Sequence record: PZ019084.1
Reading direction: 5' to 3' (one strand)
DNA from: a phage
Length of the DNA: 64,000 nt
Shown: positions 6,548-54,021 of the stretch, piece after piece
Numbering within the stretch: position 1 is the first letter of the stretch
How the letters are laid out: every line of letters begins with the position of its first letter
The notes under the pieces: model-generated
What the model was told of the DNA's origin: nothing
Database searches by the model: none
What the model saw: the letters and a program-made list of their open reading frames with translations, nothing else
Position numbers and translations under genes: made by a program

Positions 6548-6748
6548 TTACCTCACATAATTTTCTTCAAGCCAATCAATAACATCCAACGCATTATCAA
6601 AAGTTGAACCATCTACTCTGTCTTCTGTTTCATAATCAAGAACATCTAAGCCTACTCTTCCATCAACAATAGGCCATAAACAAAATAGATATTTCTTTTC
6701 TTTTTCAATTTTATCACAAAGTTGATAAATCTTTTCTATGTTATTCAT
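6548..6748 (-). CDS. hypothetical protein
   Basis: 66-aa ORF. Confidence 0.4.
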   Translation of the reverse strand: MNNIEKIYQLCDKIEKEKKYLFCLWPIVDGRVGLDVLDYETEDRVDGSTFDNALDVIDWLEENYVR

Positions 6749-17344: not shown

Positions 17345-18171
<827 letters not shown>

Positions 18172-18888: not shown

Positions 18889-19140
18889 TTACTGTTCAAT
18901 CAATCCCATGTAAAATTCTGCATCTTCAGCATCCATACCATCACAGTATTCATTAGCCATAAATCGTTCAAGAACTTCTAAAGGACCTTCAATAACAATA
19001 GAAAAATTGCAATAATTGGGATCATCATGAATACTTGTGATACTAAGTTCAGGATAACGATTACGAATAATTTCTTCAATATATTCAAAATCAACGATGT
19101 CAATATCAACTTTAGCCATATTGTTTTCCTCTTTAATCAT
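18889..19140 (-). CDS. hypothetical acidic protein
   Basis: 83-aa ORF between an early promoter and a hairpin. Confidence 0.5.
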
Positions 19141-19162
19141 CAGCAGTATTGCCGATAGTTGT

Positions 19163-19182
19163 ATAGTACCACAGTATGCTTT
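19163..19182 (-). promoter_or_regulatory. T4-type early promoter (GTTTAC-N18-TACTAT)
   Basis: Minus-strand motif match with the conserved leader element. Confidence 0.55.
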
Positions 19183-19205
19183 GGTTGTAAACCGTTTTGT
19201 GAAAA

Positions 19206-19241
19206 AAATTTTGAAATAAAAAGGGGACCTCTAGGGTCCCC
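19206..19241 (-). terminator. rho-independent terminator downstream of gene 32
   Basis: GGGGACC/GGUCCCC hairpin followed on the minus strand by a U-rich run. Confidence 0.65.
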
Positions 19242-26414: not shown

Positions 26415-27530
26415 ATGGAAAAATTTATGGCAGAGTTTGGACAAGGATACGTCCAAACGCCATTTTTATCGGAAAGTAATTCAGTAAGATACAAAATAAG
26501 CATAGCGGGTTCTTGCCCGCTTTCTACAGCAGGACCGTACGTTAAATTTCAAGATAATCCTGTTGGAAGCCAAACATTTAGCGCAGGACTTCATTTAAGA
26601 GTTTTTGACCCTTCCACCGGAGCATTAGTTGATAGTAAGTCATATGCTTTTTCGTCTTCAAATGATACTACATCAGCTGCTTTTGTTAGTTTCATGAATT
26701 CTTTGACGAATAATAGACTTGTTGCTATATTAACTAACGGAAAAGTTAATTTTCCTCCTGAAGTAGTGTCTTGGTTAAGAGCCGCAGGAACGGCTGCTTT
26801 TCCATCTGATTCTATATTGTCAAGATTCGACGTATCATATGCTGCTTTTTATACTTCTTCTAAAAGAGTTATCGCGTTAGAGCATGTTAAACTAAGTAAT
26901 AGAAAAAGCACAGATGATTATCAAACTATTTTAGATGTTGTATTTGATAGTTTAGAAGACGTTGGAGCTACCGGGTTTCCAAGAAGAACGTATGAAAGCG
27001 TTAAGCAATTCATGTCAGCGGTTGGTGGAACTAATAATGAAATTGCACGTTTTCCAACTTCAGCTGCTATAAGCAAACTCTCTGATTATAATTTAGTTCC
27101 TGGTGATGTTCTTTATCTTAAAGCTCAGTTATATGCTGATGCGGATTTACTTGCGCTTGGAACCACAAATATATCCATCCGTTTTTATAATGCATCTAAT
27201 GGATATATTTCTTCAACACAAGCTGAGTTCACCGGACAAGCTGGGTCTTGGGAATTAAAGGAAGATTATGTAGTTGTTCCAGAAAACGCTGTGGGATTTA
27301 CGATATACGCACAAAGAACTGCACAAGCTGGTCAAGGTGGCATGAGAAATTTAAGCTTTTCTGAAGTGTCAAGAAATGGAGGTATTTCGAAACCTGCTGA
27401 ATTTGGCGTCAATGGCATTCGTGTTAATTATATCTGTGAATCTGCTTCACCTCCGGATATAATGGTACTTCCTACGCAAGCATCGTCTAAAACTGGTAAA
27501 GTGTTTGGACAAGAATTTAGAGAAGTATAA
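26415..27530 (+). CDS. 35: gp35 long tail fibre hinge protein
   Basis: 371 aa versus 372 in T4, in the conserved position. Confidence 0.85.
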   Translation: MEKFMAEFGQGYVQTPFLSESNSVRYKISIAGSCPLSTAGPYVKFQDNPVGSQTFSAGLHLRVFDPSTGALVDSKSYAFSSSNDTTSAAFVSFMNSLTNNRLVAILTNGKVNFPPEVVSWLRAAGTAAFPSDSILSRFDVSYAAFYTSSKRVIALEHVKLSNRKSTDDYQTILDVVFDSLEDVGATGFPRRTYESVKQFMSAVGGTNNEIARFPTSAAISKLSDYNLVPGDVLYLKAQLYADADLLALGTTNISIRFYNASNGYISSTQAEFTGQAGSWELKEDYVVVPENAVGFTIYAQRTAQAGQGGMRNLSFSEVSRNGGISKPAEFGVNGIRVNYICESASPPDIMVLPTQASSKTGKVFGQEFREV

Positions 27531-35660: not shown

Positions 35661-36296
35661 TCACAGTTTAGATGCTACGGTGATTACTGCTTCAATGTTT
35701 TCTGCCGAGCGTTTAATGTCAAGATACACATTACCGTTTTTAGCGATTTTACATGACATTCCGATATCAGTAAATTTCTGAATATGATGTTCCATCATTT
35801 TGTATCCAAAAATTCGCATATTTCCATTGTTGTTAATTTCAAAATTACGAATTCCGTGAGTGCGTTTTTCTAAAATAGCGAGATAGTTACTGCGATAAGT
35901 TTCAACCTTTTTAAGAACAAATCCATTTTCATCTAAAAGTTTTAACATGAAGTCTTTATCTTCTTCCATATCGGAAGTAATCTCACGAGCTTTACGAGTT
36001 GCTCGTTTTTTCAGCAGTTCAGGAGCATTTTCCTGTGCGTATAAAGTTGCTGCATTTGAAATAATATCCTGAGCTTCACCTGTAATGATTAATCCATCAC
36101 CAGATTTCTCCACCAGGCCTTTTTTAATCAATACCCCAATATTACTATTAACTACTGCATTACCTAAATCTGGATGCACCTCACGAACTTCTGCAGCTGT
36201 AATGAAATCTTTCTTAGCAATGGTAATTAAAATCGCAGCAGTTTTTTCATTCAGAACATCGTTAGAAGCTTTGATGATGTAAGTTACTTTAGACAT
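35661..36296 (-). CDS. motA: MotA middle-transcription activator
   Basis: 211 aa, same as T4 MotA; sequence recognised. Confidence 0.9.
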   Translation of the reverse strand: MSKVTYIIKASNDVLNEKTAAILITIAKKDFITAAEVREVHPDLGNAVVNSNIGVLIKKGLVEKSGDGLIITGEAQDIISNAATLYAQENAPELLKKRATRKAREITSDMEEDKDFMLKLLDENGFVLKKVETYRSNYLAILEKRTHGIRNFEINNNGNMRIFGYKMMEHHIQKFTDIGMSCKIAKNGNVYLDIKRSAENIEAVITVASKL

Positions 36297-36337
36297 TTTC
36301 TAATCTCCGTAATTCTGTATCAGTAGTTGATAGTTGT

Positions 36338-36367
36338 ATAGTACCATAGTATGCTTTGGTTGTAAAC
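36338..36367 (-). promoter_or_regulatory. T4-type early promoter for motA (GTTTAC-N18-TACTAT)
   Basis: Minus-strand motif match plus the conserved leader AACTATCAACTACTGATA. Confidence 0.6.
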
Positions 36368-36390
36368 CGTTTTGTGAAAAAATTTTTGAA

Positions 36391-36418
36391 ATAAAAAAGG
36401 GAGAGCCGAGGCTCTCCC
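36391..36418 (-). terminator. rho-independent terminator
   Basis: GGGAGAGCC-GAG-GCUCUCCC hairpin followed on the minus strand by a U-run. Confidence 0.65.
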
Positions 36419-47217: not shown

Positions 47218-47637
47218 TTATTCCTTAAAGTGTGCTTTCAACATCTGATACAAGGACCATGCCTGTTCATTATTTTCAATAGTAACTTTCATGACAGGAA
47301 ATTCTGTGAAATCTTCTATTTGTTCTTGCTCTTCCTGCTCTTGCTCTTCAGATGCCTGATATGGATTTTCAACTTCATCAAAGAACCCAGCTTCGTTAGT
47401 AGAGAGCCAGATAAAGTTTTCGTCAAGGATATCACCATGTGTTGCATATCCAACTGTGCCGGTAGATGTCACAATTTTAGTAGGACGCCCGTAATAGTCA
47501 ACATCTAAAATTTTAAAAGGTTCCATACCTAAACGTCGTGCATAGATTCCGTTATCAGTATGGTCTTTAATAAAATTTTCTTGAGCCTGTTTATTTTTAA
47601 ATTGATACCATTTATTAACTTCAAATTTAATAGCCAT
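47218..47637 (-). CDS. hypothetical acidic protein
   Basis: 139-aa ORF with an acidic [10 protein letters not shown] stretch. Confidence 0.5.
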
Positions 47638-47852
47638 TAATAAATTTCCTTCCAGTAAGTTGTACCGTCTTCAGTGATTTCACGGAATACACCATAAATC
47701 GGTTGTTTATCACCAACCTTTTCATACACATAAACCGAAGTCAAGTGAGTAAACTTAGCAGTGTGCTCCTTTTGAACTACTACCAAATCTGGATCGAATA
47801 ATACATCTTCAAATTCGTCATTAGTGCATTTCTGAACAGTTTTACGTTTCAT
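47637..47852 (-). CDS. hypothetical protein
   Basis: 71-aa ORF. Confidence 0.45.
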
Positions 47853-47947
47853 TACAATTTCCTCATTAATTGAACAGTGGAGCGATGCGTTTCAGAAGAG
47901 TCAGTACCTTTGGCAAATTTTCCATTTTATTCTCCAAGTTGTTTTCT

Positions 47948-47992
47948 ATATCAGTAGTTGATATTGATATAGTACCATAATCAACTACTGAT
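47948..47992 (-). promoter_or_regulatory. 13-bp perfect inverted repeat (ATCAGTAGTTGAT / ATCAACTACTGAT) flanking a TGGTACTAT -10-like core
   Basis: Arms at 47950..47962 and 47980..47992, 17-bp spacer; the arm sequence equals the conserved early-leader element seen downstream of other early promoters. Confidence 0.4.
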
Positions 47993-48032
47993 GTATATAG
48001 TTTTATGAAAAAATTTTAAGCTTTATGCAAAT

Positions 48033-48452
48033 TTATGCTAAAGCTGCTTCGCACCATTTTTTAATTTGGAATTCAGGAACTACCATGAACTGGCCTGCAA
48101 AAACAATATTGTAGAGCTTGACGCCATCTTCTACCCAACGGTCCGAAATAAAACCAGCGACTTGATTCGTTGTCCATGGAGTTCCATCTGTTGCTGCCGC
48201 AATTGTGAATTTATGGTCTTTTACAACTAAAACTGAAGAACAAAGTTTCCATTTAAACGCGCTTTCTTCTGGCTCAATGAATTGGCTTGAGACATAACCA
48301 ATGTTACCATCAGCGTCACGAACTTTAACCTCGTTACGACCAAAAACTGGATCACTTACAGAAAGAACTTCAACCAGCTTTCCTGCAACTTTAGAACGAG
48401 AAGCAACGGATACATATACGTAATCACCGGTAGATAGATTTACAATATTCAT
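48033..48452 (-). CDS. MotB-like protein, paralog of the next gene
   Basis: 139 aa; shares SRSK.AGKLVE and C-terminal D.WVEDGVKLYN.VF.G blocks with ORF 48469..48957. Confidence 0.5.
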   Translation of the reverse strand: MNIVNLSTGDYVYVSVASRSKVAGKLVEVLSVSDPVFGRNEVKVRDADGNIGYVSSQFIEPEESAFKWKLCSSVLVVKDHKFTIAAATDGTPWTTNQVAGFISDRWVEDGVKLYNIVFAGQFMVVPEFQIKKWCEAALA

Positions 48453-48468
48453 AATAATTCCTTAAACT

Positions 48469-48957
48469 TTATGCATAGAGAGCTTTGCTATAGTGTTTAA
48501 TCCAGCTTTCAGGAATGACTTTATATGTTCCTAAAAATACCACATTATACAGCTTAACACCGTCTTCTACCCACTGGTCGGTAATGTATGCACACATAGC
48601 ACGAGTATAAACAGCCGCTCCATCATCTTTGATAAATTTAAATTCACAAGGAGCAATGAACTTAATAGCCTGACCGAGTTTCCACTTAAAGTCTACACCT
48701 ACATGCGAAGTATCAATCGTTTCAATTCCTTTAGCAGGAACAGCTTTCAAAAACGCAGACTCAAGAAATTTCGCACGAACATAGCCAAACTGAGGTTTAG
48801 ACTTTCCATCTTTAGGAATGATACGCACTTTTACTTCAGAATCTTCATCTTTAACACCGTGTTTAAGCTGAATGCTTACAATTTCAACCAATTTTCCTGC
48901 TGCTTTAGAGCGGGATTTATCAGATACACGAGCTAATTCACCAATATTAATAATCAT
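48469..48957 (-). CDS. motB: MotB-like DNA-binding protein
   Basis: 162 aa, the length I recall for T4 MotB, in the T4 motB position between 39 and dexA; assignment from memory. Confidence 0.5.
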   Translation of the reverse strand: MIINIGELARVSDKSRSKAAGKLVEIVSIQLKHGVKDEDSEVKVRIIPKDGKSKPQFGYVRAKFLESAFLKAVPAKGIETIDTSHVGVDFKWKLGQAIKFIAPCEFKFIKDDGAAVYTRAMCAYITDQWVEDGVKLYNVVFLGTYKVIPESWIKHYSKALYA

Positions 48958-53966: not shown

Positions 53967-54021
53967 ATACTTCAGAAGCTATCATATCATTGTTAGGAAG
54001 GAAAGTAAACAACTTTTTGAA

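Follow-up and report, generated by a model that had tools for sequence, protein, structure and literature searches.

An inverted repeat around the −10 element of a predicted early promoter upstream of cef in a T4-like phage

The motB–cef intergenic region and its palindrome

We analyzed a 64,000-nucleotide (nt) stretch of phage DNA (sequence record PZ019084.1; hereafter, the window), which belongs to a Tequatrovirus (T4-like phage) related most closely to phages A6-6 and JLBYU24. The locus lies within a run of minus-strand genes ordered dexA, motB, a 139-aa motB-like paralog, an intergenic region (48032..47853), cef, and goF. The gene motB (48469-48957, minus strand) and its paralog stand in tandem and have the C-terminal motif WVEDGVKLYN..F in common; the paralog is missing from T4. 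Homology between T4 and the window restarts about 25 nt upstream of the −35 position of the predicted cef promoter described below, which places an indel boundary at the promoter cassette. The features of the region are as follows:

48033..48452, minus strand: motB-like paralog, 139 aa; read-through from this upstream gene would yield transcripts with both arms of the palindrome
48001..48017, minus strand: A/T-rich UP-like tract, AAAATTTTTTCATAAAA, near-identical to the tracts that precede the T4 motA early promoter and window promoter 36367
47992..47997, minus strand: −35-like hexamer TATACA (ATATACA in place of GTTTACA), 17 nt upstream of TACTAT
47980..47992, minus strand: upstream arm, ATCAGTAGTTGAT, formed by the last −35 base and most of the spacer; predicted to be untranscribed from the cef promoter
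47969..47977, minus strand: extended −10 element TGgTACTAT (TACTAT at 47974..47969), in the hairpin loop, with TG at −15/−14
47950..47962, minus strand: downstream arm, ATCAACTACTGAT, which makes up +1 to +13 from a predicted start at A47962
47932..47935, minus strand: Shine-Dalgarno (SD) sequence GGAG of a remnant ORF, 15 nt beyond the arm
47866..47925, minus strand: remnant ORF, MENLPKVLTLLKRIAPLFN, 19 codons; the first ORF served by the predicted promoter, with a stop codon that abuts the cef ribosome-binding site
47637..47852, minus strand: cef, 71 aa, with goF next; the genes downstream of the promoter

An 89-aa ORF, intact in A6-6, SA21RB, Sf25, and contig L007, is preserved at both ends in the remnant: its original N- and C-termini are still in frame after one large deletion in the interior and another of 2 nt. 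Its counterpart in T4 is a different remnant, of 11 codons.

The palindrome consists of ATCAGTAGTTGAT on the plus strand (47950-47962) followed, after a gap of 17 nt, by its exact reverse complement (47980-47992). The gap reads TTATGGTACTATATCAA on the minus strand and includes the core TGGTACTAT; both the coordinates and the sequence given for this 13-bp inverted repeat in an earlier, sequence-only reading are confirmed. When mismatches are allowed, the symmetry extends to 23-nt arms with 83% complementarity. This is the sole perfect inverted repeat of at least 13 bp with a loop of at most 30 nt in the 64-kb window, and first-order Markov simulations (200 runs) yield a mean of 0.065 perfect repeats of such size per window, with a maximum of 1. 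The window holds only two other perfect short-loop inverted repeats, at 27167-27210 (12-bp arms, AAATATATCCAT, 20-nt loop) and at 18105-18135 (11-bp arms, GATTATGCAAT, 9-nt loop). Folded as RNA, the minus strand of the palindrome reaches −21.1 kcal/mol (z = −5.8 against dinucleotide shuffles), and the corresponding single-stranded DNA fold reaches −12.2 kcal/mol (z = −4.8). The structure predicted for an RNA that reads through the site is an irregular helix of 12 + 5 + 5 bp (about 22 bp), with the −10 sequence near its tip. A search of Rfam returned no family match for the palindrome, only a chance match to an miRNA hairpin (E = 0.76).

An identical palindrome is present in the motB–cef intergenic region of T4 (NC_000866, 6582-6594 and 6612-6624). 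Neither the GenBank nor the RefSeq record of T4 carries a regulatory feature at this site, the intergenic region is not treated in the MotB and GoF papers, and a literature search found no genome-wide maps of T4 start sites.

A predicted early promoter for cef and goF

The window contains a set of 19 early promoters, all on the minus strand, that are characterized by GTTTAC, a 17-nt spacer, usually TGn, and TAnnnT, and that are typically followed by an SD sequence and an ATG. The site upstream of cef follows the same plan: on the minus strand, it reads AAAATTTTTTCATAAAAC-TA-TATACA-(17 nt)-TACTAT-ATCAAT-ATCAACTACTGAT, in which the 17 nt finish in TGG and GGAG and ATG come later. As the sequence-only reading pointed out, the canonical −35 GTTTAC(A) is absent. 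The site has ATATACA instead, which matches GTTTACA at five of seven positions (its hexamer TATACA agrees with TTGACA at four of six), and the −35 is the sole promoter element that departs from the motA cassette family.

From 16 other early promoters in the window, without the cef site, we derived a position matrix. In this leave-one-out matrix, the cef promoter scores 27.0 bits and ranks 17th among 127,874 positions on both strands, directly below the 16 training promoters. The −36..−25 block contributes 10.2 bits and the extended −10 contributes 13.8 bits; nothing (0.0 bits) comes from the block formed by the −35 and the spacer. A simple sigma-70 scan left the promoter uncalled, with 8 of 12 matches, because its threshold is 9 of 12 hexamer positions and it takes no account of TGn.

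The cef promoter aligns base for base with window promoter 36367, which corresponds to the early promoter of T4 motA; in Z48569, the depositors of the latter assigned the −35 to GTTTACA and the −10 to TACTAT. The same cassette is common to the promoters at 36367, 19192, and 40233. Two of its copies (36290-36400 and 19120-19230, minus strand) are near-identical counterparts of the motA promoter, each situated behind a GC-rich hairpin and T-run terminator, and are long enough to serve as dispersed repeats in recombination. A third exact copy of the arm occurs at 36319-36331, beginning 7 nt past the −10 of a canonical early promoter and spanning its predicted +1 to +13. This single-copy arm at a motA-type promoter has no partner, and the inverted pair of arms occurs only once in the 64 kb. 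The sequence-only reading had placed the arm in many early promoters: by our reading, a leader of the form TAT(C/A)AACTAC is found in about five or six of the 19, but the exact arm recurs in one only.

From its anatomy, the palindrome is very probably a sigma-70-type early promoter of cef and goF that belongs to the same cassette family as the T4 motA promoter, which bears out the promoter half of the suggestion that the site is a regulated promoter or operator. Transcription is predicted to start at A47962, on the basis of the usual 7-nt distance after the −10 and the identical motA leader. The prediction would add an early promoter at about 6582-6624 of T4, with a predicted start at 6594, where the T4 records mark none; for the palindrome site alone, it changes little.

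Two other assignments were considered and rejected. A MotA-dependent middle promoter would place the MotA box, (a/t)(a/t)(a/t)TGCTT(t/c)A, at −30, a position occupied here by the arm, and no conserved box is present; the nearest GCTT (AAAGCTTAA, 48024..48016) is too far upstream, and T4 has GTTT there. As for a T4 replication origin (oriA, C, E, F, or G), a review puts soc, not cef, near oriA, and no other origin lies near motB or cef.

Stems at other early promoters and in other genera

Pairing between a spacer and the sequence after the −10 is common in the window. Comparison of each spacer with its own downstream 26 nt reveals perfect complementarity of at least 7 bp in five of the 19 early promoters; when spacers are paired with the downstream region of another promoter, such complementarity appears in 2.6% of cases (permutation P = 0.0002). 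As we read the minimum-free-energy folds, a stem that surrounds the −10, overlaps it, or is confined to the spacer is present at about 12 of the 19 promoters. The dyads at these other promoters are unrelated in sequence to the cef palindrome. The stemless promoters 56109, 36367, and 19192 have a GC hairpin and T-run terminator just upstream, and promoter 2573 has both a stem and a terminator. Four other promoters (−10 at 53986, 39484, 9568, and 2549, minus strand) have a −10-enclosing stem whose 3′ arm covers the SD sequence or the start codon. In read-through RNA, their ribosome-binding sites are predicted to be almost completely occluded (unpaired probability ≤0.01), and each takes the top rank among 16 when set against chimeric-upstream controls. 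An RBS-covering stem, with a G.U pair, is also present at the promoter that follows dexA in T4.

Among close relatives, the upstream arm of the cef palindrome is invariant in T4, A6-6, four IMG/VR copies, Sf25, and nine metagenome copies, and a 63-nt block containing the palindrome is likewise invariant, whereas the adjoining 20 nt are polymorphic. The single arm variant found, in SA21RB, is an A-to-G change in the upstream arm that produces a G.T pair (G.U in the sense RNA). A metagenome scan for palindrome variants returned 83 hits, of which nine are T4-like, all with identical arms, and added no covariation data. All carriers are closely related Tequatroviruses, and their invariance is weak evidence because they have diverged by only 2 to 7%. 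The Mosigvirus phiEC1 has a motA-type cassette with a canonical GTTTACA and a noncomplementary spacer, without the palindrome, indicating that the promoter does not need it. Judged from these comparisons, the palindrome is a derived state of the Tequatrovirus lineage, and an origin by templated copying of the leader into the spacer is plausible.

We examined cef-upstream regions from IMG/VR contigs and annotated phages of Kanagawavirus, Winklervirus, Karamvirus, Gelderlandvirus, Marfavirus, Jiaodavirus, and Gaprivervirus. In most, a canonical early promoter is present, and its spacer is complementary to the nucleotides immediately following the −10; the arms differ between lineages:

upstream GGTGTAGGAG, downstream CTCCTACACC
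upstream TGGTAGGAGC, downstream GCTCCTACCA
upstream AGGGCTAT, downstream ATAGCCCT
upstream AGGGTTAT, downstream ATAACCCT
upstream ATAGGGTA, downstream TACCCTAT
upstream GGTCTAT, downstream ATAGACC

A gap-free alignment of 15 different promoter sequences located upstream of cef in six or more other genera defines a 13-pair helix in which 81.5% of cells are paired, versus 33 to 45.5% when the partner is slid by one to three columns. Both sides have changed in seven of the 13 pairs, and the covariation score (0.374, versus 0.157 in shuffles) was reached by none of 500 shuffles. As judged from these alignments, −10-enclosing stems have been maintained by compensatory change in other genera. A stem kept with different, covarying arms points to structure rather than to a protein recognition sequence, and we consider it likely that the stem is a selected structure. 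The T4-type palindrome is an analogue of these stems, not a homologue: its register differs, with the center about 2.5 bp further downstream, and its arms are unrelated. Conservation in relatives, which the sequence-only reading had proposed as a check, holds for the arm sequences in T4 and close relatives, whereas other genera have a stem with different arm sequences. In phage VR25 (NC_028925, ~330-370), a stem with arms ATAGGGT and GCCCTAT precedes cef in a 50-nt intergenic region whose promoter hexamers are degenerate; here, a stem may persist without a promoter.

The principal competing explanation is neutral: the palindrome would be a mere by-product of one single templated (quasipalindrome, strand-switch) mutation, or of recombination between cassettes, that put an inverted leader into the spacer, where it persists idle. 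Spacer sequence is largely free in sigma-70 promoters, the perfect arms are what a recent templated event would give, and the mismatches in such stems are all of the transition type, compatible with decay; the unrelated spacer of the phiEC1 cassette and the close relationship of all carriers also accord with this explanation. Against it, −10 stems recur at many nonhomologous early promoters, well above the permutation control, compensatory changes keep stems at the cef promoter across genera, the VR25 stem is kept despite its degenerate hexamers, and the invariant block stands beside polymorphic sequence. On balance, we regard neutrality as unlikely, although it is the alternative to be taken most seriously.

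Whether such stems act as RNA or as DNA can be addressed in part through their mismatches. Within the inner ten pairs of the cef-promoter helix, the non-Watson-Crick cells comprise 10 G.T and one A.C. A mismatch-blind search of 51 distinct promoter regions recovered 32 stems, the internal mismatches of which are 12 G.T, three A.C, and no others (binomial P = 0.035); once related sequences are collapsed, about eight G.T events stand against two A.C events and significance is lost. The one variant of the T4-type palindrome, the A-to-G change in SA21RB, likewise gives G.U in sense RNA. Across the 19 promoter regions of the window, the sense strand folds more stably than the antisense strand (P = 0.003), but composition-corrected z-scores do not differ between the two (P = 0.29). 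These results, no one of which is decisive, lean moderately toward a sense-RNA structure, and we hold action at the level of sense RNA to be an evenly balanced proposition.

Possible action of the stem and comparison with known systems

The upstream arm is the spacer, and transcription is predicted to begin with the first base of the downstream arm; only read-through RNA or extruded DNA can therefore form the hairpin. The suggestion of a hairpin in the transcript, therefore, applies to RNA that reads through from motB; the promoter's own transcript, with its predicted start at A47962, would have one arm. We propose that, in this lineage, the 17-nt spacer came to repeat, in inverted form, the sequence that the promoter itself transcribes first. 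RNA polymerase starting at A47962 would produce transcripts that carry the 3′ arm only, whereas transcripts from the motB promoter would carry both arms and fold into the irregular hairpin of about 22 bp, with the −10 sequence in its loop. A terminator scan found no terminator-like sites between the motB promoter (~49030) and the palindrome. The stem would most likely act on read-through RNA as a boundary element, by protecting the upstream message, providing a processing site, or attenuating. In the first case, the upstream message would be shielded after cleavage in the A/U-rich, GGAG-containing leader; in the second, the helix would be long enough for RNase III, for which the stems of other genera are too short. 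Taken whole, this explanation (an early promoter of cef and goF combined with a boundary stem for read-through RNA, of the promoter-early stem-loop [PeSL] class) is the best available, and we judge it somewhat probable.

Translation offers a further possible target. The 5′ arm lies upstream of the start site, as in read-through-specific occlusion hairpins, an arrangement that depends on the predicted +1 at 47962. The SD sequence of the remnant ORF has a predicted unpaired probability of 0.31 in promoter-initiated RNA and 0.10 in read-through RNA, but the latter value, against a chimeric-upstream mean of 0.36, ranks only fourth of 16 and is nonsignificant. General sequestration of SD sequences by read-through hairpins was rejected: the raw comparison looked significant, but P = 0.43 against chimeric-upstream controls. 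More broadly, −10-enclosing stems across Tevenvirinae early promoters might constitute a conserved, covarying sense-RNA switch between folded read-through and unfolded promoter-initiated transcripts, of which the cef palindrome would be an extreme case. We consider this generalization speculative and rather unlikely; if true, the switch would give the two RNA populations of one gene different stability, processing, or translation.

At the DNA level, a cruciform or altered melting of the −10 could tune or shut the promoter with supercoiling, or the palindrome could be a preferred recombination site for the shuffling of gene cassettes, a role that has been proposed for PeSLs. The −10 is in the loop, many stems are centered at its upstream edge, and the single strand folds stably as DNA (see above); relatives differ by indels on either side (T4 lacks the motB-like paralog, and the 89-aa ORF is deleted here), and crossover points have been placed in or near the stem-loop of PeSLs (Arbiol et al., PMC2839356). 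The shut-off of T4 early promoters is, moreover, an open question (Hinton 2010), to which −10-enclosing dyads could, as DNA and by a further reach, contribute. However, the smallest loop around a fixed TGnTAnnnT would also center on the −10, the greater tolerance of G.T than of A.C is not favored by a DNA cruciform, a central spacer of 17 nt makes extrusion kinetically hard, and the deletion end points here fall outside the palindrome. Such action, which along with neutrality is the main rival to a role in read-through RNA, is, in our estimation, improbable.

We give still less credence to a Rho-independent terminator or attenuator that ends motB transcripts. WebGeSTer labels the same hairpin a terminator in SA21RB (OL960580, 185-235), and an RB49 stem (PeSL211/210) cut lacZ read-through about as much as rrnB T1 did (PMC2839356). 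Yet only four of the 13 positions in the arms are G/C, the stem is followed by AUAGAAAACA with no U-run, the terminator scan did not call the site, and the stems of other genera also lead into A/C-rich sequence. The window has textbook GC-hairpin and T-run terminators just upstream of other early promoters, and this difference in design suggests a different job for the cef stem. The WebGeSTer label, a software prediction only, is probably wrong.

That the arms are half-sites of an operator, through which a dimeric phage or host DNA-binding protein represses the cef promoter, is highly implausible. Perfect dyad symmetry on the −10 is classical repressor geometry, and the mechanism of early shut-off is unknown (Hinton 2010), but the arm pair occurs once in 64 kb, the single-copy arm at the motA-type promoter is partnerless, the dyads at other early promoters are unrelated in sequence, and orthologous cef promoters change both arms together. 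The operator half of the sequence-only suggestion accordingly falls away, given a unique arm pair and covarying, different arms in other genera. Near-symmetrical −10 elements can give bidirectional promoters, and the plus strand reads an extended −10-like motif directly (TGaTATAGT, 47965-47973) that points into the motB-like gene, but a divergent antisense promoter is just as hard to credit: its −35 position is TCTATA (three of six matches), no gene follows on the plus strand, and the motif is not kept in orthologous promoters.

Returning to the promoter with a boundary stem, a close counterpart is the T4 motA early promoter (Z48569), with which it has in common the UP-like tract, TGGTACTAT, the first 14 transcribed bases (ATCAACTACTGATA), and a subsequent GGAG SD sequence. 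The motA promoter differs in its canonical GTTTACA, in a spacer unrelated to the leader, and in having a GC-rich terminator hairpin with a T-run immediately upstream and no −10-enclosing stem.

The T4 occlusion hairpins at gene e, soc, 49, and I-TevI are associated with late promoters, and their 3′ arm covers the ribosome-binding site. Translational occlusion of this kind was reportedly described in T4 by McPheeters et al. in 1986, to name one example. As at cef, the promoter lies within the hairpin region, such that read-through RNA folds and promoter-proximal RNA lacks the 5′ arm; at the cef site, however, the SD sequence is 15 nt beyond the arm and the predicted occlusion is nonsignificant. 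The T4 pattern is instead followed by the four window early promoters with stems over the SD sequence or start codon (−10 at 53986, 39484, 9568, and 2549).

At the RNase III sites of the T7 early region, cleavage leaves a protective 3′ stem on the upstream message. These sites resemble the predicted cef hairpin in being irregular intergenic hairpins of about 20 bp in polycistronic early RNA, but the stems at the homologous position in other genera have 7 to 10 bp, too short for RNase III.

The cef palindrome fits as a member of the published class of composite elements known as PeSL cassettes, which were described in T4-like phages (Arbiol et al. 2010, PMC2839356) and later extended to the PST/T4 pair (Comeau et al. 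2014, PMC4122927). Like them, it combines an intergenic A/T-rich tract, a sigma-70-type early promoter, a stem-loop, and an SD sequence with ATG, in a cassette that is repeated around the genome and adjoins indels between close relatives; the stems of RB49 and phi1 lie mostly between the −35 and −10 or overlap the −10 (PMC2839356), and the cef arms flank the −10. It differs in that the RB49 stems are of the G-run/C-run type, one of them shown to attenuate, whereas the cef stem is A/T-rich, with 13 perfect bp and no U-tract; in addition, the PST/T4 paper (PMC4122927) draws stems just upstream of the promoter and not around the −10. The promoter-plus-stem-loop design is, then, already described in T4-like phages and common in the window, and it is ordinary for such a genome. 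The covariation of −10-enclosing stems across T4-like genera is of more interest than the palindrome itself: that T4-like early promoters commonly appear to hide the −10 in a stem kept by compensatory change is the broader and more useful pattern, one that bears on the handling of overlapping early transcripts and on the real role of PeSL stems.
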